DNA of 64,000 nt from Candidatus Saccharimonadales bacterium (GTDB taxonomy: Bacteria > Patescibacteriota > Saccharimonadia > Saccharimonadales > UBA10212): positions 162,717 through 226,716 of the forward strand of contig JBEKOJ010000001.1 of assembly GCA_049521895.1 (NCBI GenBank), read 5' to 3'. A program made the position numbers and the translations under genes. The notes below the pieces were generated by a model, which made no database searches, was not told the origin of the DNA, and saw only the letters and a program-made list of their open reading frames with translations. Positions 3,081-57,039 of the stretch are shown here, piece by piece; positions within the stretch are counted from its first letter, which is position 1; each line of letters starts with the position of its first letter.

Positions 3081-4090
3081 GAGGTGTTTTCAAGCTCATT
3101 CAACAGCTGTTTGGCTACATTCAATGTCTCATTCTTGATTTCATTATAGCTACGGCCGTCAGTTATCTTGAAGCCAGCGGCATATGGATGGCCGCCGCCA
3201 CCAAAATGTTCACCTAACTTGGCAGCGATGGCAAACTTATAGTTGCAGCGAATTTTAGCTGTAATTTTGCCATCGTGGTATAACTTGAACGCAATAGCTA
3301 CACGCGTGCCTTTAGCGAGCCGCATATCATCTAACACCAGCATCGGTGGGTTATAAAGCGGGCTATACTTTTCAATTTCTTCCCATGGAATGGTTACAGT
3401 AGCTATACGATCATTATCATGGAATTCCACGCGTTCCAAAAGCTGGCCTTTATAGTGGATAAGCTCCGGCTCGCGCTTCATCGTCTCGCGGCGCATATTA
3501 TCAATCTCTGCCAACTTAACGCCGCCTTCGACAAGTTCGGCGATAATTTTAATAGTTCTGGCGGTAGTGGCTTCACTCATTAGACCCAAGCTGTCACCTA
3601 AAATTGCAATAGCCAGTAGCCGCTTAGCATCAAGATTCACCGGCCATTTTAGCTGCCGAGCTAGTTCGTAAATTACTTCTCCGGTTGCTACTGCCTCATG
3701 GTTGCAGACAACAGTAGCAAAAGTTATGGTGGGCTCGGTGCCATGGTGGTCGATGACAATGGACGGTCTGCTGGCTAACCAGCCCTTGGCGGCTTGCTTA
3801 TCTAATTGCTCGAGTAATGTATCGCTACTAGTATCGACGATAATACTAAGGTCAAATTGTTGCGGCAGTTCGGTTGTCACCCTATCCGATCCAGGCAGGT
3901 ATTTTAAGTAGCTAGGCAGATCCACGCCGCAGTAGAGATGCACTTTCTTGCCTTGCTCTTCCAGGATATGTTCGAGTGCTAGGGCGCTGGCCAGGCTGTC
4001 GGCATCAGGGTTATCCGCCTGGACTACTACCACACTACTTGCCCCCTCGAGCAATTTGGCAATTTTCTTAGCCTCTGGGTAGTTATTCAT
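3077..4090 (-). CDS. DHH/DHHA1 family phosphoesterase (NrnA-like nanoRNase/pAp phosphatase)
   Basis: Contains DHH (VIDHHGT) and DHHA1 (GGGGHPYAAG) motifs. A 4-nt overlap couples it to cysS. Confidence 0.8.
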   Translation of the reverse strand: MNNYPEAKKIAKLLEGASSVVVVQADNPDADSLASALALEHILEEQGKKVHLYCGVDLPSYLKYLPGSDRVTTELPQQFDLSIIVDTSSDTLLEQLDKQAAKGWLASRPSIVIDHHGTEPTITFATVVCNHEAVATGEVIYELARQLKWPVNLDAKRLLAIAILGDSLGLMSEATTARTIKIIAELVEGGVKLAEIDNMRRETMKREPELIHYKGQLLERVEFHDNDRIATVTIPWEEIEKYSPLYNPPMLVLDDMRLAKGTRVAIAFKLYHDGKITAKIRCNYKFAIAAKLGEHFGGGGHPYAAGFKITDGRSYNEIKNETLNVAKQLLNELENTS

Positions 4091-9081: not shown

Positions 9082-9180
9082 CCATTTTACATTTTTCACT
9101 TGGCATTTGACATTTATTTACCATTGTTAAATGTTCAATGCTAAATTAATGTAAATTGAAAATTGTAAATTGAAAATTCA
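9082..9180. repeat. Low-complexity quasi-palindromic spacer repeat, family A (CATTT/ACC arm and AAATG/TAAATTG arm)
   Basis: The 5' arm ccattttacatttttcacttggcatttgacatttatttaccattg faces the 3' arm caatgctaaattaatgtaaattgaaaattgtaaattgaaaatt. It shares the core GCATTTGACAT with the copies at 28983 and 37111. Confidence 0.6.
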
Positions 9181-10906: not shown

Positions 10907-10930
10907 ATTATCTCTTGAGCATTATTTTCT

Positions 10931-10958
10931 ATAAAAAGACCTTGGCGATTTACCAAGG
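10931..10958 (-). terminator. Putative intrinsic attenuator hairpin in the rplJ leader
   Basis: The minus strand reads CCTTGG-taaatcg-CCAAGG followed by TCTTTTTAT, about 25 nt upstream of the rplJ ATG. Confidence 0.45.
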
Positions 10959-11094
10959 ACTACAGAAGATGTCTGCACAACAATACATTGCGCGTTAACC
11001 TCGGTAGCAGATTAAGCCCGCTTGTCGCGGGCAGCTACTGTCTTTGGCAATCTAATAGTAGATTAGCACAACCTGCAACTTCTTACAAGTCCTA
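10959..11094 (-). promoter_or_regulatory. Candidate L10(-L12) autoregulatory leader
   Basis: This 188-nt untranslated gap holds nested stems (GTAGC..GCCCGC-gacaa-GCGGGC..GCTAC) upstream of the attenuator. The position matches known rplJ leaders, but identity was not verified. Confidence 0.35.
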
Positions 11095-15381: not shown

Positions 15382-15401
15382 AAGCTCCTTTCGGTCGCTT
15401 T

Positions 15402-15476
15402 AGGAACTAGAAACAAGGAACTAGGAACTAGTTTCAGCGCGATTCGCTTGTTGCTTGTTACTTGTTTCATGTTGCT
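15402..15476. repeat. Low-complexity quasi-palindromic spacer repeat, family B (GGAACTAG arm)
   Basis: The arm aggaactagaaacaaggaactaggaactag (29/30 identical to 26242-26271) faces cttgttgcttgttacttgtttcatgttgc. It fills the nusG-rplK spacer. Confidence 0.65.
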
Positions 15477-19224: not shown

Positions 19225-19422
19225 CCTTAAAATTCTCTTGTGCCCGTTGCAGCCAAGGGAAAGGTAGTAGCACCGGTCCCGCCAAAGGCGGGATTCGGAT
19301 CTACTCCAAAAGGTGCGTTGGCGAATGCAGCCGCGGAGGCAAAATTGTGTTTATGTAATTTTGCTGAGCAGCGAGGGAGGTCGCGGAGCAACCAGGAAAA
19401 CCGCATGGTTGTCCTTCAAGTT
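19225..19422. ncRNA. G+C-rich structured intergenic element, copy Z (paralog of 24726-24892 and 55952-56200)
   Basis: Contains hairpins CCGGTCCCGCC-aaa-GGCGGGATTCGG and GCAAAATT-gtgtttatgt-AATTTTGC, followed by GAGCAGCGAGGGAGGTCGCGGAGCAAC. Strand and function are unknown. Confidence 0.35.
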
Positions 19423-19626
19423 TTACCTGCGGGGCTTTACTTCGTTGCGACCCAAATTTTTCTTTGTTTCTGATTGTTCAGCAATAGTATGTTTTATCGG
19501 GCAATATTTCTTAAGCTCCACTTTATCAGGCGTATTCATAGTGTTTTTAGTTGTATAGTAATGGCGTTGCCCGCAAGCTTCACATACAAGCCCAACAATT
19601 TTTCGCTTCTCGCTTTTTTTAGCCAT
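19423..19626 (-). CDS. rpmG: 50S ribosomal protein bL33
   Basis: MAKKSEKRKIVGLVCEACGQRHYYTTKN..KKYCPIKHT fits the bL33 pattern. I chose the ATG at 19626. Confidence 0.85.
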   Translation of the reverse strand: MAKKSEKRKIVGLVCEACGQRHYYTTKNTMNTPDKVELKKYCPIKHTIAEQSETKKNLGRNEVKPRR

Positions 19627-23589: not shown

Positions 23590-24693
23590 CTAATCTTTCG
23601 GCCGTAAGCCCACCGCCTTTTGTACTTTCAGCAGAGCTGCATTGGCAACTTCATTCATGGCTTTTTCATCGTCAGCTAGTTTTTGCATTAGCTTATCTTG
23701 GTTGACCTGGGCTAATTTAGCCTGGAAATCAGCCAAGAAAACTTTTACAGCGTCCGATACGGCTTTTTTGAGCTCGCTATAGCCAGATTTGCCCTGCCAT
23801 TGCCCATTTACCGCTGTCTGAGGCTTATCTAATAACAGGGCTAAGATTTGCAGCAAGTTAGTGACGCCGGGCTGCTTTTCCCAGTCATAGCTAATTGATT
23901 CTAGTGAATCGGTAGTGGCGCCCAAAACTTTTTTGGCGGCTTCGTCTGGACTATCACTAAGCATAATCGTACCTGCCGGGTCTTCTACGCTCTTGCTCAT
24001 CTTCTTTTCAGGGTTGCGCAGGCTGCGGATACGAACCGGCTCACTATGGCCGGCGAATTCCATCTGTTTGGCGTTATCCTCGGGCAGTACAAATAAATCA
24101 TCGCCGAATTTATTATTTATCCGAATGGCCAGATCGCGGGTAAATTCCACGTGTTGTCGTTGGTCTTCGCCTACCGGGACCCACTTAGCGCCGTAAAGTA
24201 GGATATCCGCAGCCATCAGCACCGGATAATTAAATAGGCCTGCTGTTACGCCAGCCTTCCGAATTTTTACATCTATCGTATCTTCTTTATCGAAATCCAC
24301 GTCGACAGCACCAGTTGACTCTATTAAGTTTAGCGACTTATCTTTGAATTCTGTCATGCGCGATAACTCACCAAAGTGGGCAAAGCAATCAAGGACCCAT
24401 GTCATCTCGGAATGGGCCGGGATATAGCTTTGGCGGTAAATAAAGGTATTGGGCTCTTCGATATCCAGTCCGGCTGCTACAAAAACCTTCAAATTCTTGA
24501 GGGACTGGTCATATAAATTTCCGTGATCAATAGGCGTAGTAAAGCTGTGCAGGTCTGGTACAAACATGTTCAGCTGATACTGCCCAGCGTGCTTTTTTTG
24601 CAGCTCCACCATCGGTAGAATAGCACCCAAATAGTTGCCTAGGTGAAACTCGGCATTAGATCGCAGCCCGGTTAAAATGACCTCTTTGCTCAT
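23590..24693 (-). CDS. trpS: Tryptophan--tRNA ligase
   Basis: Class I motifs are present: FHLGNYLG (HIGH-like) and KMSKS. The architecture is TrpRS-like, 367 aa. Confidence 0.9.
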   Translation of the reverse strand: MSKEVILTGLRSNAEFHLGNYLGAILPMVELQKKHAGQYQLNMFVPDLHSFTTPIDHGNLYDQSLKNLKVFVAAGLDIEEPNTFIYRQSYIPAHSEMTWVLDCFAHFGELSRMTEFKDKSLNLIESTGAVDVDFDKEDTIDVKIRKAGVTAGLFNYPVLMAADILLYGAKWVPVGEDQRQHVEFTRDLAIRINNKFGDDLFVLPEDNAKQMEFAGHSEPVRIRSLRNPEKKMSKSVEDPAGTIMLSDSPDEAAKKVLGATTDSLESISYDWEKQPGVTNLLQILALLLDKPQTAVNGQWQGKSGYSELKKAVSDAVKVFLADFQAKLAQVNQDKLMQKLADDEKAMNEVANAALLKVQKAVGLRPKD

Positions 24694-24701
24694 TACGATT
24701 C

Positions 24702-24707
24702 ATTATA
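24702..24707 (-). promoter_or_regulatory. -10 box TATAAT 8 nt upstream of the trpS ATG (near-leaderless)
   Basis: The minus strand reads gTTATAATgaatcgtaATG, with no SD. Confidence 0.4.
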
Positions 24708-24725
24708 ACTTAACTCATCGCGAGG

Positions 24726-24892
24726 AAGATAGCTTTGCGTTTGGGTGCAGTGCAAGGCGCCAGCGAGGAATGGACTGAGCTGTATTGTAATACTGCGAAG
24801 GAGTACCGTAGCTGGCAACGCCGCGATGCGCCAAAAGCCCGACGGAGCTGCTGGCTCCGCTAGCAGGCAGGTCGGGCGGCGCAAGCTATCTT
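24726..24892. ncRNA. G+C-rich structured intergenic element, copy Y
   Basis: The closing stem AAGATAGCTTTGCG / CGCAAGCTATCTT encloses GCGCCAGCG, the hairpin GCTGTAT-tgta-ATACTGC, GAAGGAGTACCGTAGCTGGCAAC, GCGATGCGCCAAAA and the hairpin GCCCGAC..GTCGGGC. Confidence 0.35.
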
Positions 24893-25287
24893 TTGGTGAA
24901 CTGGCGTTGCTTGCGGGCGCCGCGTAACCCAAACTTCTTGCGTTCTTTTTCGCGCGGATCGCGACCTAGTAGGTCGGCTTTTTTTAGTGTTCCGCGGTAA
25001 TCTTCGTTTATCTCTACCAAAGCTTTGGCGATTCCGAGCCTGATAGCGTCCACCTGGCTAGCGTGTCCGCTACCAGTAACTTTGGCGCTGATAATATACT
25101 CTTCGGGATTTAGCTCCAAGACGGTAAAGGCTTTAAGCAGTTCATTTTGTAGTCTTTTGCTACCGGCGAAATATTCGTCGGCGGTTTTACCATTGACCAC
25201 AAATGAGCTCTTGCCACGCGACAGTCGCACCCGCGCAGCCGCACTTTTGCGTCGCCCTAAGGCATAAAAATAACTGTTAGTGGCCAT
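24886..25287 (-). CDS. rpsI: 30S ribosomal protein uS9
   Basis: The C-terminus ..RDPREKERKKFGLRGARKQRQFTKR is canonical uS9. Confidence 0.96.
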   Translation of the reverse strand: MATNSYFYALGRRKSAAARVRLSRGKSSFVVNGKTADEYFAGSKRLQNELLKAFTVLELNPEEYIISAKVTGSGHASQVDAIRLGIAKALVEINEDYRGTLKKADLLGRDPREKERKKFGLRGARKQRQFTKR

Positions 25288-25736
25288 TACTTCATTTCGC
25301 CTTTCCTATTCAAAGATAATGTTTCGGGCGTTTGGGCGCTGTGGTTGTGTTCGCTGCCGGCGTAAACCTTGAGCCGCTTAAGCCGTCCGTCGAGCAGTTT
25401 GTTGTTAGGCAGCATACCTCTAATTGAATCTCTGATTACTTTTGTGGGGTCTAATTTCATTTGTTCGTCCAAGGTGCGCCTGTAAAGCCCGCCCGGAAAA
25501 CCGCTGTGGCGGTAGTAGTGTTTGCCATCAATTTTATTACCCGTTACTACTAATCTGCTAGCGTTGATAATTATCACGAAGTCTCCGCCGTCCATATGGG
25601 CTGTAATAGATGGCTTATCCTTACCAAGCAATAATCTGGCAGCTTGGGTAGAAACGCGGCCCAGAGAAGCCTGTGAAGCGTCCAGAACATACCATTTACG
25701 TGTGATTTCCTTTGGTTTTAGGCTGTATGACTTCAT
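25287..25736 (-). CDS. rplM: 50S ribosomal protein uL13
   Basis: ..KWYVLDASQASLGRVSTQAARLLLGKDKP.. is canonical uL13, and the gene lies upstream of rpsI. Confidence 0.96.
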   Translation of the reverse strand: MKSYSLKPKEITRKWYVLDASQASLGRVSTQAARLLLGKDKPSITAHMDGGDFVIIINASRLVVTGNKIDGKHYYRHSGFPGGLYRRTLDEQMKLDPTKVIRDSIRGMLPNNKLLDGRLKRLKVYAGSEHNHSAQTPETLSLNRKGEMK

Positions 25737-26218: not shown

Positions 26219-26241
26219 TACGCGCTTCCTCCGGAGGCTAT

Positions 26242-26306
26242 AGGAACTAGGAACAAGGAACTAGGAACTAGTTTTTCCTGTTTCCTGTTTCCTGTTTCCT
26301 GTTTCC
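26242..26306. repeat. Low-complexity quasi-palindromic spacer repeat, family B, with (CCTGTTT)x4
   Basis: The arm aggaactaggaacaaggaactaggaactag is followed by tttttCCTGTTTCCTGTTTCCTGTTTCCTGTTTCC. The arms pair as AGGAA/UUCCU blocks with regular mismatches. Confidence 0.7.
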
Positions 26307-27906: not shown

Positions 27907-27926
27907 TACAGACCTCCTTCGGAGGT

Positions 27927-28038
27927 AATTATCAATTTACAATTATCAATTCTCAATAATTTAGCATCTGTCATCTGCCATTGATCAAATGAAAAATGTG
28001 AAATTAATGGTAAATGGTAAATGGGATATGGTAAATGG
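27927..28038. repeat. Low-complexity quasi-palindromic spacer repeat, family A (about 85% identical to 34041-34138)
   Basis: Reads attatcaattctcaataatttagcat...gccattgatcaaatgaaaaatgtgaaattaatggtaaatggtaaatgggatatggtaaatgg. Confidence 0.7.
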
Positions 28039-28924: not shown

Positions 28925-28960
28925 TAAAAGCCTCTCGTGGATATATTTATCATTGAGCAT

Positions 28961-29083
28961 TTATCATTGAGCATTGATTTAACAGGTAGCATTTGACATT
29001 GTTCGGAATTGCTAAATGAGAAATGAGAAATAAATGGTAAATGTGAATTGGTAAATGTGAATTGGAGCAATTTCATTGCGACT
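28961..29083. repeat. Low-complexity spacer repeat, family A variant
   Basis: Contains aggtagcatttgacattg and aaatgagaaatgagaaataaatggtaaatgtgaattggtaaatgtgaattgg. A tandem atttatcattgagc x2 sits at 28945-28972. Confidence 0.6.
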
Positions 29084-33413: not shown

Positions 33414-33435
33414 TACGCAACCTCCGGTTGCTTTA

Positions 33436-33515
33436 GTAAAAAGTAAAAAGTAAAAAGTAAAAAGCTAACAGCGGCATATGGTGGCTGCTTGTTGCCTTTT
33501 ACTTGTTGCCTGTTG
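33436..33515. repeat. Low-complexity quasi-palindromic spacer repeat, family C, with (GTAAAAA)x4
   Basis: GTAAAAAGTAAAAAGTAAAAAGTAAAAAgctaacagc faces gctgcttgttgccttttacttgttgcctgttgc. Confidence 0.65.
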
Positions 33516-34040: not shown

Positions 34041-34138
34041 ATTATCAATTTTCAATAATTTAGCATTTAGTAATTGGCCATTGGTAAATGACAAATGAGA
34101 AATTAATGTGAAATGGTAAATGGGATATGGTAAATGGG
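34041..34138. repeat. Low-complexity quasi-palindromic spacer repeat, family A (about 85% identical to 27941-28038)
   Basis: Reads attatcaattttcaataatttagcatttagtaattggccattggtaaatgacaaatgagaaattaatgtgaaatggtaaatgggatatggtaaatggg. Confidence 0.7.
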
Positions 34139-35207: not shown

Positions 35208-35230
35208 TAGACGCTCCCTTTAGTCGCTTT

Positions 35231-35305
35231 AGGTGACAGGTTGTAGGTTGTAGGTGACAGTTTAGTTACAGTTTTTGTAACCTGTAACCTGTAACCTGTA
35301 ACCTG
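35231..35305. repeat. Low-complexity quasi-palindromic spacer repeat, family D, with (GTAACCT)x4
   Basis: aggtgacaggttgtaggttgtaggtgacag faces GTAACCTGTAACCTGTAACCTGTAACCT. The arms pair as AGGU/ACCU blocks on the mRNA strand. Confidence 0.65.
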
Positions 35306-37071: not shown

Positions 37072-37185
37072 TATTTACCATTGACCATTTGCCATTTTCC
37101 AGTGATTTACCAGGTAGCATTTGCCATTGGTTAGATAAAAAATCAGCAATAAATGTTAAATGTAAATTGTTAAATGTAAATTGGA
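37072..37185. repeat. Low-complexity quasi-palindromic spacer repeat, family A (inverted orientation)
   Basis: tatttaccattgaccatttgccattttccagtgatttaccaggtagcatttgccattgg faces caataaatgttaaatgtaaattgttaaatgtaaattgg. Confidence 0.65.
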
Positions 37186-55200: not shown

Positions 55201-55769
55201 GTAACGGCAATCTTGCGCTTGCGGTCAATTTTCACATACAGCGCGCCATTAGCGGCTGTCTCAAATTCCAGCCAGGCTCCACGCACCGGAATAATTTTTG
55301 CACCATATAAATTGGTGGTACCGTGGCCATCGGCGGTAAAAAACACGCCGGAACTACGGATAAGCTGGCTAACAACCACTCGCTCGGCGCCGTTAATTAC
55401 AAAAGTGCCGCGGCTAGTCATCCACGGATAATCCCCCAGATAAATTTCTTGTTCTTTGATTTCGCCAGTAACTTTATTAGTCAGCTCGACTGTCGCTTTT
55501 AGGGGCGCCTCATAACTCACGTTATTTTCGCGAGCTTCAGCTTCGGCCATTTTAGGGTCTTCAAAGTGATAGTCCTTGAAGACAATACTTAGTTTCGTTC
55601 CCGTGTAATCATCAATCGGGCTGATCTCTGCCAGCAGTTCGCCCAAACCTTCTTCTACGAACCAAGCAAACGAGTTGTTTTGGTGTTCCACCAGGTTAGG
55701 CGGACTTAATACATCATCTGACTTGGTAAAGTACGTGCGCTCTACACTTAAGCCCAATTTTTTGGCCAT
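52221..55769 (-). CDS. rpoB: DNA-directed RNA polymerase subunit beta
   Basis: 1182 aa with rpoB motifs (..GRHGNKGVI.., ..FGEMEVWALEAYGAA..). Confidence 0.98.
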   Translation of the reverse strand: MAKKLGLSVERTYFTKSDDVLSPPNLVEHQNNSFAWFVEEGLGELLAEISPIDDYTGTKLSIVFKDYHFEDPKMAEAEARENNVSYEAPLKATVELTNKVTGEIKEQEIYLGDYPWMTSRGTFVINGAERVVVSQLIRSSGVFFTADGHGTTNLYGAKIIPVRGAWLEFETAANGALYVKIDRKRKIAVTTLLRALGMTEEAIKNAFKHVDQGQINYIDATLEKDPTRSTNEALIEVYRRLRPGDLATVDNARSLLENMFYNFKRFDFGRVGRYKINKRLNLDVPNTIDNRVLRIDDIVAIVAEIIRMNVTQEPADEIDSLANRRVKLVGELVQRQFRIGLLRMERNAKDRMSMSDLETVTPAQLTNARPVVAAVREFFASSQLSQFMDQINPLSELAHKRRLSSMGPGGLSRERAGFEVRDAHATHYGRICPVETPEGANIGLVLNLASYAHINEYGFIETPYRKVINAVTAKEAAGHIAAVDLANERGTVIIKAGAKITEAAAKKLAANKSQTTWPVKAKVTNKIVYLDAAEEEQAVIAGAGNPIDANNYFIDSRVSARNRLAPGEVDASEVTHMDASRSQTIGSSAGLIPFVEKNYVLRSLMGSNQQRQAVPLIKPESPIVGTGFEVIAAQNSGQIVQAEADGVVQKATADEVIVKYKNGKNVAYEPQHFVRSNEGSSINQTVLVSSGDKVKAGDILIEGMSIAGGELALGKDLLTAFMPWAGYNFEDAIIISRRLVEDDTLTSIHIVDYMTEVRETKLGPEIVTRDIPNVSEESLRHLDEDGIVRIGAEVHPGDILVGKITPKGEQELSSEERLLRAIFGEKAKEVRDTSQRMSTGRHGKVVGVKVFSRASGHELKAGVIMQIQVFVAQMRKISVGDKLGGRHGNKGVIARILPVEDMPFNGNGTPIDVILNPLGVPSRMNIGQLFETHLGMAARALGIHVASPAFNGVPIKKIQELLKQAGLPEDGKQQLYDGRTGEAFAERTTVGSMYIIKLNHMVSDKIHARSTGPYTMVTQQPLGGKAQNGGQRFGEMEVWALEAYGAANTLQEMLTIKSDDVYGRAKAYESIIKGTEIQGPKVPESFNVLVKELQGLGLKVDLLADNKVVDAEQVLAEHIKDESKHAPTVDLPDSSALPTTDVSVDDVVTEFGVSEEEAPSSVNDVELNEEAIEISNEMTEGT

Positions 55770-55886
55770 GCGAAAGCAATACTCCCTGCTTTTATTTAAT
55801 AAACGCCTTAGCGAAGCCCACTACGTTCGGCGATGCAAATTGTATTTAATACAGCAAGCACCAAAGTACACTACTTCTTAGCCTAT

Positions 55887-55915
55887 ATTGTATTGATCTG
55901 GGGATAAACCGTCAA
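55887..55915 (-). promoter_or_regulatory. Sigma-70-like promoter for rpoBC (TTGACG-N17-TACAAT)
   Basis: The minus strand reads aaCTTGACGgtttatccccagatcaaTACAATata, about 115 nt upstream of the rpoB ATG. Confidence 0.5.
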
Positions 55916-55951
55916 GTTATTCTGGGAAAAAGTGTTGTAGAATATACGCTA

Positions 55952-56200
55952 GACTATCTTATTCGGAGACCGTTCACGCGCGGAGGGTGCCTCGCCTGAG
56001 CCGCTTAAACATTATAGCGTCTCCGCGGCGCACCGCACCGGCTCCACTTGGGGTATGGTGAATCTCCGAAGTAAGATAGTCGTCGCTTCCCGCAGGTAAA
56101 AGTTTGAGTAAAGCGCCAGGCGGCGCCGAGAAGCAAGCGAAACGTATTGTGATATACGTTGAGCGAGCATCGCAGGTGGCAACAATGCGATTTGCCAAAA
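55952..56200. ncRNA. G+C-rich structured intergenic element, copy X
   Basis: An 18-bp closing stem GACTATCTTATTCGGAGA (55952-55969) / TCTCCGAAGTAAGATAGTC (56063-56081) is followed by the shared module GCGCCAGGCG..AACGTAT-tgtgat-ATACGTT..GAGCGAGCATCGCAGGTGGCAAC..TGCGATTTGCCAAAA. Confidence 0.4.
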
Positions 56201-56202
56201 TT

Positions 56203-56802
56203 TTATCTGCTGGTAATCACCTTATCGACCAGGCCATATTTCTTGGCTTCTTCGGCAGTCATCCAATAGTCTCGGTCAACATCTTTTTCGATTTTACTGA
56301 CCGGCTGGCCGGTGTTTTTTGCTAAAATCTCGTTGAGTAGCCTCTTCAACCGCAGGCCTTCTTTTAGGTCAATCTCCAGGTCGCTGATTTTAGCCCGCTG
56401 GGCGGCACTACTTGGTTGGTGAATCATCACCGTAGCATGCGGTAACAGCAGTCGCTTGCTCTTGGTACCCGAACTCAGCAGGATAGCCGCCGCGCTGGCA
56501 TTAACACCGATACCGACAGTTTGAATGTCAGATTTGACAAATTTCATGGTGTCATAAATACCAAGCGCATGGTAAACGCTACCACCGGGGCTATTTATGT
56601 AAAAGATGATGTCTTTAGTCGGATCTTGGTTCTCTAGAAAAAGCATCTGGGCAACTACCAAGTTGGCTGTGTGCTCATTAACTTCGTCACCTAAGAAGAT
56701 AATGCGGTCTTTAAGCAGACGGCTATAGATATCGTAAGCCCGCTCAAAGCGCCCCTCTTGCTCAATAACGGTTGGCACTAAGATCTGTGATTTTGTGGAC
56801 AT
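56203..56802 (-). CDS. clpP: ATP-dependent Clp protease proteolytic subunit
   Basis: 199 aa with ..INSPGGSV.., the active-site region ..[11 protein letters not shown].. (Ser) and MIHQP (His). Confidence 0.96.
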
Positions 56803-56810
56803 GCATATAG

Positions 56811-56838
56811 TTTATAAAAATTAGCACTCGTAAGTCAA
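56811..56838 (-). promoter_or_regulatory. clpP promoter TTGACT-N16-TATAAA, 8 nt from the ATG
   Basis: The minus strand reads cTTGACTtacgagtgctaattttTATAAActatatgcATG. The -35 box and spacer lie inside the CIRCE palindrome. Confidence 0.5.
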
Positions 56839-56847
56839 GAGTGCCAA
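56821..56847. promoter_or_regulatory. CIRCE-like inverted repeat (HrcA operator) TTAGCACTC-N9-GAGTGCCAA
   Basis: Matches 17 of 18 arm positions of the CIRCE consensus TTAGCACTC-N9-GAGTGCTAA, with exact 9-nt spacing. Confidence 0.65.
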
Positions 56848-56999
56848 CACATGTTGCAGATAGGGTTGGTCTGGGTAGGTTTAGCTTGTTTGATTTTTCC
56901 GAAGCCCTGAGCGAGATGTATCCGTTGATACATTGAGCTGGACTGGAGGAAAAAGCAGCAAGATAAGCCTGTTCCAGGCAGGCCTAGCGGTGATATGTG

Positions 57000-57030
57000 T
57001 TAGTACTCTTGGCTTGGTCAAGAGTGCCAA
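57000..57030. repeat. Degenerate second copy of the CIRCE-like element (13-nt spacer)
   Basis: TTAGTACTC-ttggcttggtcaa-GAGTGCCAA shares the exact 14-mer GTCAAGAGTGCCAA with 56834-56847. It lies directly after the tig stop. Confidence 0.45.
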
Positions 57031-57039
57031 TTTAATCGG

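Follow-up and report, generated by a model that had tools for sequence, protein, structure and literature searches.

A structured, probably selfish repeat insertion of Candidatus Saccharibacteria in the rpsI-trpS spacer, with signs of a host-derived closing stem

The window, i.e., the whole stretch of 64,000 nucleotides that we analysed, encodes rplM (25287-25736), rpsI (24886-25287) and trpS (23590-24693) on the minus strand. The product of rpsI is the ribosomal protein S9 (133 aa), which we identified from its open reading frame and from the match of the Pfam Ribosomal_S9 profile to the identical gene of locus L001. The product of trpS is a tryptophanyl-tRNA synthetase of 367 aa, whose best homologues are assigned to Saccharibacteria. 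The spacer of 192 nt between rpsI and trpS contains a G+C-rich element, hereafter copy Y, and all the genes around it are on the minus strand. The -10 box of trpS (TATAAT, 24702-24707, minus strand) is found 8 nt before the ATG, and relatives show the same arrangement. Since TATAAT directly precedes the ATG in the window and in these relatives, copy Y lies upstream of the trpS -10 box and outside the trpS mRNA.

Copy Y is described here on the plus strand. It starts with a 5’ arm, AAGATAGCTTTGCG (24726-24739), which was read directly from the sequence and which we take to be an inverted copy of the host flank at 24880-24892. Next comes a long irregular hairpin, or shared module (24738-24836), with helices P1 to P4 and an apical GUAU-UGUA-AUAC, which was delimited with the covariance model, the consensus structure and covariation. 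It is followed by a second hairpin (GCCCGAC..GGAGC-tgctg-GCTCC..GTCGGGC, 24837-24877), placed from the consensus helices (5-6 in the consensus of 11 copies, 7-8 in that of 21), and by the 3’ arm, CGCAAGCTATCTT (24880-24892). The latter is the antisense of the end of rpsI (AAA AGA TAG) plus 6 nt of spacer (CTTGCG); its last seven nucleotides (CTATCTT, 24886-24892) are the reverse complement of the final rpsI codons AAA-AGA-TAG. The two arms, AAGATAGCTTTGCG and CGCAAGCTATCTT, pair with one bulged T, and a run of T occupies 24891-24894. The core of copy Y was matched by the covariance model of the family at 24738-24880 with a score of 138.6 bits. The region 24694-24900 folds on the plus strand at -90.7 kcal/mol (z = -4.7), which none of 200 shuffles equalled, and on the minus strand at -71.3 kcal/mol (z = -3.1), again with no shuffle as good. 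The duplex formed by the arms (-19.1 kcal/mol) is more extreme than the first percentile obtained from 2000 random pairs of flanks (mean -7.0 ± 3.8 kcal/mol).

Two open reading frames overlap copy Y, one on the minus strand (24693-24932, 79 aa) and one on the plus strand (24745-24927, 60 aa). The frame of the latter is the one annotated by public gene callers as hypothetical proteins of 50-90 aa in other Saccharibacteria. In copy Y itself the peptide frame is frameshifted and has a stop. A promoter-like site (TCGGCA-17-TAAAAT, 9/12) is present on the plus strand at 24650-24678, 48 nt upstream of copy Y and inside the 5’ coding region of trpS on the opposite strand. The site is weak, and it remains only a possibility that it drives plus-strand transcription of copy Y. 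A sequence-only reading of the locus had described the closing stem with its bulge, the two hairpins, the TTTT, both reading frames and the trpS -10 box next to the element. All of these features were confirmed, and the stem, the hairpins, the TTTT and both reading frames are at the positions it gave. Its warning that the reading frames could mislead automated annotation also held, the plus-strand frame being annotated as hypothetical proteins elsewhere.

We compared the orthologous trpS loci of 21 other Saccharibacteria genomes and of the closest relative (80% TrpS identity, 29-nt spacer). The element was absent from all the rpsI-trpS spacers that we read in relatives where the two genes adjoin (26 to 488 nt), and the covariance model of the family detected no copy in the approximately 170 kb of trpS loci from the 22 relatives. 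Copy Y is thus missing at the orthologous position and fails as a conserved regulatory element of the rpsI-trpS spacer. Since the orthologous spacers are empty, copy Y is an insertion and not a conserved signal of rpsI or trpS. We need not invoke regulation of either gene to account for it, and the -10 box of trpS was left beside its gene. We rejected a minus-strand leader or T-box for trpS: the element is upstream of the -10 box, relatives lack it, and it has no match in Rfam. The rpsI-trpS spacer of the window should not be taken as a sign of regulation linked to tryptophan or to ribosomes.

Other features of the window and of these loci were noted. The TrpS of the window has an insert of 23 residues, LNLIESTGAVDVDFDKEDTIDVKI (around 24265-24333, minus strand), that the 80%-identical homologue lacks; because its RNA is unstructured (z = 0.7), this insert has no connection with the element. 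In three relatives, L005 (around 3620-3760), L009 (around 3540-3660) and L077 (2080-2190), we found a conserved, terminator-like rpsI-trpS leader (GGCGGTTTGTTCTGTGCGCT ... AAACCGCCACCGAGGCGGTTTTTTT) ahead of a small open reading frame or of a chorismate mutase gene. This leader, which is absent from the window, could be an attenuator. Several intergenic regions of the window contain A+T-rich arrays of short AAATG-type repeats in both orientations (9091-9180, 27926-28038, 28944-29065, 34041-34137, 37072-37184), and similar arrays fill the rpsI-trpS spacers of L006 and L010. Another repeated unit, in which a short hairpin (GCTCC..TTCGG..) precedes tandem motifs of the AGGAACTAGGAACTAG type, is found downstream of genes at 15384-15434, 26224-26274, 33417-33467 and 35213-35263. 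The window also encodes a ribosomal protein L10 leader (Rfam RF00557, 55.9 bits) on the minus strand at 10923-11065.

We scanned the window with the covariance model (R1) with filters off, and three copies were reported, all on the plus strand: Y, X and Z. All three are antisense to all of their neighbouring genes and each is placed just past a stop codon. Copy X (56093-56209) is encoded between clpP and rpoB. It has a 5’ arm, CAGGTAAAAG (56093-56102), the long-hairpin module (56102-56200) and a host flank, TTTTATCTG (56201-56209), which holds the stop codon of clpP. Its module is 66% identical to that of copy Y and scored 76.6 bits, and its arms form a duplex of -14.2 kcal/mol. Copy X lacks the second hairpin and is a short or truncated variant. 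Copy Z (56822-57030) fills the clpP-tig spacer, with arms of about 40 nt and a degenerate core (56873-56991) that was matched with 30.6 bits (E = 1.5e-4). The whole spacer that contains it (56803-57039) folds as a single hairpin (-102 kcal/mol, z = -9.2).

Some structures near these copies, or resembling them, could not be attributed to the family. Just 5’ of copy X and upstream of rpoB, an 18-bp stem with one bulge (GACTATCTTATTCGGAGA / TCTCCGAAGTAAGATAGTC, 55952-56082) surrounds a G+C-rich three-way junction. Neither Rfam nor the fetched loci contain a counterpart of this domain, which could be another kind of insertion element or a leader of rpoB. An AAGATAG motif common to X and Y was considered as a conserved end of the element and rejected: that of copy Y is explained by the flank copy of the end of rpsI, and the similar motif near copy X belongs to a separate, unexplained stem. 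The clpP-tig spacer has a direct repeat, TCAAGAGTGCCAA, at 56835 and 57018. We also obtained a marginal match of the covariance model at 19301-19435, adjoining tRNA-Trp (12 bits, many non-canonical pairs), which is probably due to chance or to a very decayed copy.

Homologues outside the window were retrieved by a pattern scan of metagenomes with 18 bases common to X and Y, and then with nhmmer. Our sampling is therefore biased, since the DNA scan required these 18 fixed bases, and the protein searches see open frames only. Copies of the family were found on unrelated contigs, with up to three copies in 8-12 kb and five in 20 kb (three each in L031 and L041, five in L073). One of the genomes with the element was only 53% identical in TrpS, a measure of the spread of what is likely a family restricted to lineages within Saccharibacteria. 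The family unit comprises a 5’ arm, the long irregular hairpin, CCAAAAGC, the second hairpin, GCGG and a 3’ arm. The conserved core of 146 nt contains the two hairpins, one long and irregular and the other shorter, and the whole element spans about 155-190 nt. Several copies are truncated or degenerate. The second hairpin of copy Y, described as an extra hairpin in the sequence-only reading, is canonical because it is present in the other full-length copies that we aligned; copy X is the one that lacks it.

The structure of the core is strongly supported by covariation. In an independent MAFFT alignment of 11 copies, RNAalifold predicted 48 pairs, of which 33 showed compensatory changes, and 92.3% of the pair positions were paired. 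Controls in which the partners were slid by 1-3 columns had only 27-41% of them paired, and none of 500 shuffles reached the observed values. In the alignment of 21 copies to the covariance model R1 (E ≤ 1e-10), 94.5% of the pair positions were paired and 37 of the 48 pairs had compensatory changes on both sides. The two strands are not equivalent. We counted 64 G·U pairs against 11 A·C mismatches in the core of the family (at 22 and 7 pair positions, respectively), the plus strand folded better than the minus strand by 8-24 kcal/mol in 13 of 14 copies, and in the arms G·U pairs were again commoner on the plus strand (32) than on the minus strand (13). The excess of G·U over A·C, the more stable folds of the plus strand and the similar trend in the arms indicate that the fold is selected on the plus strand, as RNA or single-stranded DNA. 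We infer that selection on the plus-strand transcript is the likely reason why the fold is kept.

Our searches did not associate the element with any known family or mobilising gene. It had no Rfam match, either at gathering score in the window or at E ≤ 10 in 24500-25100, and there were only chance-level matches in 55700-56300. A pattern scan of viral contigs gave a single chance match in a high-G+C phage, the consensus pattern gave none, and BLAST searches of phages and plasmids did not find the element. We found no transposase, reverse transcriptase or other mobilising gene linked to it. No parent insertion sequence was found either, although we searched only short loci; there was nothing similar in the phage and plasmid collections. 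The literature that we searched contains no description of such an element in Saccharibacteria or Patescibacteria, and the family is thus apparently undescribed.

Copy Y is best regarded as a member of a highly structured, probably non-autonomous and selfish family of repeat insertions dispersed in the genomes of Candidatus Saccharibacteria. The central claim of the sequence-only reading, that copy Y and copy X belong to a repeated G+C-rich element enclosed by a stem, held, and copy X is real. The three checks proposed there all support it. The covariance-model search recovered Y, X and a third copy, and the folding was better than that of shuffled sequences on both strands. The third, a search of the orthologous spacers, showed that relatives lack the element, which is no refutation because the family occurs at many other sites, and which marks copy Y as an insertion. 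We can add that ribosomes can read through the element where it interrupts genes and that it is mobile. Mobility is inferred from the distribution only, because we saw no site polymorphic for filled and empty states within one population.

At the DNA level we identified nine copies inside coding sequences: two in Dus, one each in IleRS, TatD, FolD, an RluA-type pseudouridine synthase and MsrA, and two in orthologues of PrmC. All nine, the only coding-sequence copies whose DNA we retrieved, are in the sense orientation, in the same frame and stop-free, with scores of 121-160 bits against R1. Searches at the protein level added DHFR, NrdR, malic enzyme, YgjP, a TsaD-family protein, the C-terminal region of a Y-family polymerase and a methylase. 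In-frame copies are thus carried by at least 14 families of housekeeping proteins. Other copies occupy tight operon spacers, many of them in the sense orientation, e.g., between atpB and atpE.

The plus strand encodes a characteristic peptide frame (LDEAQGASEERTEAY..QLATQRFAKS..GYARQQAGA). An exhaustive profile search found this peptide in 246 protein clusters, most of which are free-standing hypothetical proteins of 50-90 aa; among the best 150 clusters, 36 exceeded 100 aa. A search with a peptide of an antisense frame matched no protein. The sense frame is open in 14 of 19 copies and the antisense frames in 10-13 of 19. The peptide of the sense frame is hydrophilic (GRAVY -0.9), and those of the antisense frames range from -0.2 to +0.5, with two of three positive. 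Variability is flat along codon positions (0.26, 0.25, 0.29), and several intergenic copies have stops or frameshifts (Y, L044, L041b, L073a and others). Hence, conservation acts on the nucleotide fold and not on the protein.

Two orthologous copies are encoded directly upstream of nrdR (L031 2643-2814, L032 1829-1999). They have a GAGG ribosome-binding site, an ATG and an open frame of 58 codons whose stop overlaps the start of nrdR (ATGA). These copies may really be translated, in a way coupled to nrdR. The orthologous PrmC copies differ in core pairs by five compensatory and nine wobble-preserving changes, and the pair upstream of nrdR by six and two, respectively. Either the fold was preserved at these sites once the element had inserted, or insertion happened twice at the same places. 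The 5’ arms of the two PrmC copies differ, tracking the differing codons of their hosts. The pairing kept in orthologous copies and the strong plus-strand bias suggest a function at the level of the transcript, which a purely selfish model leaves unexplained.

The closing stem was found in all of the 20 copies studied (20/20), with a mean duplex energy of -19.3 kcal/mol, to be compared with -7.0 ± 3.8 kcal/mol for random flank pairs. Yet, the sequence of the arms is different in every copy and their length varies from about 9 to about 45 nt. We placed the native boundaries of the host genes by aligning the host proteins to solved homologues, with the caveat that these homologues are distant. 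The 3’ arm encodes residues native to the host in MsrA (AFRILL), FolD (SWFEP), PrmC (ILTIVDVGTGSG), IleRS (VSLLAWTTTPW) and TatD (RKLVAIGETG). In RluA, taking the AWWLSE of the 3’ arm as native restores the linker of 12-13 residues found in 20 empty orthologues, and the sequence of the 5’ arm is absent from all 20 of them. The native boundary is ambiguous in one Dus copy. The 3’ arm of the closing stem is thus native host sequence in six host proteins, and the inserted DNA therefore consists of the core plus the reverse complement of the downstream host flank. Since the 5’ arm copies the local flank, the stem that closes each copy is unique to it. In 21 copies we saw no direct repeats beside the arms. 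Conserved terminal repeats are lacking too, and what is duplicated is the flank, in inverted orientation. We found no description of this inverted-flank junction in the literature that we searched.

Three other accounts of the stem were rejected. A guide model, in which a pre-existing 5’ arm picks a complementary target, does not fit arms that differ in each copy and range from 9 to 45 nt. The alignment of Dus suggested that both arms are borne by the element, which is contradicted by the native residues in the 3’ arms of MsrA, PrmC, IleRS, TatD, RluA and FolD. A pre-existing palindrome at the target was rejected on account of the 20 empty RluA orthologues, which have no such repeat.

By analogy with the six host proteins, the DNA inserted at copy Y would be 24726-24879, and 24880-24892 is likely native host sequence. 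The observation in the sequence-only reading that the 3’ arm overlaps rpsI thus held and is refined: the 3’ arm is most likely native and the 5’ arm its inverted copy. One point speaks against this assignment, as the Arg codon of rpsI in the 3’ arm is AGA and the relatives that we read have CGN at this position.

How such a junction might arise can only be inferred, and the following scheme is untested. A template carrying the core, either a transcript or a single-stranded copy, would direct the extension of the 3’ end of a broken or nicked host strand. The newly made strand would then snap back and copy the exposed single-stranded flank, after which the end would be rejoined. The predicted outcome is an inverted duplication of the flank, of variable length and on one side only, without direct duplication of the target. 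We propose the snap-back because a one-sided inverted copy of variable length matches the product expected from a polymerase that snaps back. We found no enzyme associated with this putative mode of insertion. In a bolder reading, the family would represent a new class of mobile elements that propagate by template copying and not by cut-and-paste, and the fold of the transcript, including the stem made with host codons, would be selected in mRNAs. We consider this reading possible but clearly less likely than not. If it were true, the element would have a role at the RNA level, either by serving as the source of new copies or by offering a handle to a factor peculiar to the Candidate Phyla Radiation.

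Several rival explanations must be weighed against that of a selfish repeat. Copy Y could be a structured RNA with a function for the host, either a small RNA gene on the plus strand or a cis-acting element of mRNAs (a stabiliser, a processing site or a protein-binding site). The strong covariation, the plus-strand bias of G·U over A·C, the structure-preserving changes between the orthologous copies in prmC and upstream of nrdR, the weak promoter-like site 48 nt upstream of copy Y, and the many sense copies inside operons (e.g., atpB/atpE) all speak in its favour. Yet, no Rfam family matches even at E ≤ 10, the same spacer lacks the element in 22 relatives, and copies are found in many unrelated contexts, including in frame in at least 14 protein families. 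Furthermore, Y, X and Z are antisense to their neighbours and several copies are truncated or degenerate. This makes a host-functional RNA very improbable. We give as little credit to an intron-like sequence that would be excised, in which the closing stem joins the boundaries and the open frame is merely a fail-safe. The fold is kept even within coding sequences, where all copies are sense, the closing stem links the 5’ boundary to host sequence just beyond the 3’ boundary, and no protein matches the antisense frame, as such a model would have it. However, there is no match to models of group I introns, group II introns or small self-cleaving ribozymes, and we saw no split gene around a stop-containing copy. 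Stops or frameshifts occur in several intergenic copies but in none of the nine copies in coding sequences, which are all in frame. The comparable elements of Rickettsia reportedly stay in the mRNA, which is a further point against excision.

The frame could instead be a gene for a small protein of about 57 aa (LDEAQGASEERTEAY..QLATQRFAKS..GYARQQAGA) that has paralogues and also occurs in fusions. Public gene callers do annotate it (in 19 and then in 246 clusters), both orthologous copies in front of nrdR show a GAGG, an ATG and a stop that overlaps the nrdR start, and 14 of 19 copies keep the frame open. This explanation is nonetheless practically ruled out: variability is flat along codon positions and conservation tracks base pairs instead of codons, copy Y is frameshifted with a stop, copy X is truncated, and many unrelated enzymes contain this sequence. 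Finally, the minus strand of copy Y could terminate the rplM-rpsI transcript intrinsically or stabilise its 3’ end, as a side function acquired by the insertion. On this strand, immediately past the rpsI stop, the second hairpin leads into GCUUUUGG, a classical terminator is found at this place in several relatives (L005, L008, L009, L020), and the strand still folds (z = -3.1). However, there are only four U’s, and our terminator scan (G+C-rich hairpin plus a U-run of at least five in eight) calls none at the element on either strand. Relatives with spacers of 26-29 nt have no terminator at all, and copy X lacks the hairpin. We regard this role as unlikely, even if the minus-strand hairpin and GCUUUUGG may give rpsI transcripts some termination or 3’ protection.

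The family has consequences for annotation and for our views on these genomes. Hundreds of hypothetical proteins of 50-90 aa in Saccharibacteria are readings of the element, and inserts of about 55 residues in enzymes such as IleRS, FolD, MsrA, PrmC and DHFR derive from it. The very small, reduced genomes of the Candidate Phyla Radiation tolerate and keep an in-frame repeat like that of Rickettsia. If the element is selfish, as we favour, it is a second, independent case of selfish DNA that remodels essential proteins. The host-derived closing stem is a junction signature missing from all the bacterial repeat families that we compared, and it points to insertion by copying.

The closest parallel among known systems is with the Rickettsia palindromic elements (RPEs), which are repeats of about 150 bp with a strong hairpin fold, found in a reduced genome, with intergenic and in-frame insertions and a conserved peptide frame (summarised in PMC10969869). 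Our element meets both criteria of likeness, being a dispersed hairpin repeat placed in frame in unrelated housekeeping genes and having a conserved, hydrophilic and stop-poor peptide frame. This is a likeness of kind and not of homology. Homology to RPE-1 to RPE-10 is not expected because the host phylum, Saccharibacteria, is unrelated. The fold also differs, since it consists of a closing stem and two hairpins, and its outer stem is not fixed: the 3’ strand is host sequence and the 5’ strand its inverted copy. To our knowledge, no host-derived outer stem has been reported for RPEs.

MITEs such as ERIC/IRU, Correia/NEMIS, BOX and RUP are also small, non-coding, structured and multi-copy; they are often co-transcribed in operons and can carry open reading frames and make fusions (PMC10969869). 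Our element is likewise small, structured, present in multiple copies and in operons, carries open reading frames and makes fusions. ERIC-type elements are thought to be constrained as RNA. Yet, what defines a MITE is a set of terminal inverted repeats of conserved sequence, a direct duplication of the target site and a parent insertion sequence. The arms of our element pair but vary from copy to copy, and there is no direct duplication, so that neither of these two criteria is met; no parent was found. REPs and BIMEs resemble it as extragenic palindromes in operon spacers. However, REPs are conserved repeats of 20-40 bp linked to RAYTs, whereas our element spans about 155-190 nt and is also found in coding sequences.

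Other parallels come from break repair and from retrons. Snap-back or templated insertion of the polymerase theta type, and hairpin self-priming by reverse transcriptases, make inverted flank copies of variable length beside a copied template. The element shows the same junction signature, but these processes are known from eukaryotic repair and from cDNA synthesis in vitro, and snap-back is not known to be a route of propagation for a bacterial repeat family. The msr-msd of retrons resembles the element in that its conserved hairpins are enclosed by a stem (a1/a2) whose sequence varies. Retrons are, however, single-copy and placed beside a reverse-transcriptase gene, whereas our element is multi-copy and sometimes inside genes. 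The retron criterion is not met, as the neighbours of the copies in the window are rpsI/trpS, clpP/rpoB and clpP/tig, with no adjacent reverse-transcriptase gene. On balance, the element probably belongs with the selfish palindromic repeats of the RPE and MITE kind, among which it stands out by its host-derived closing stem and by the signs of selection on the fold of its transcript.
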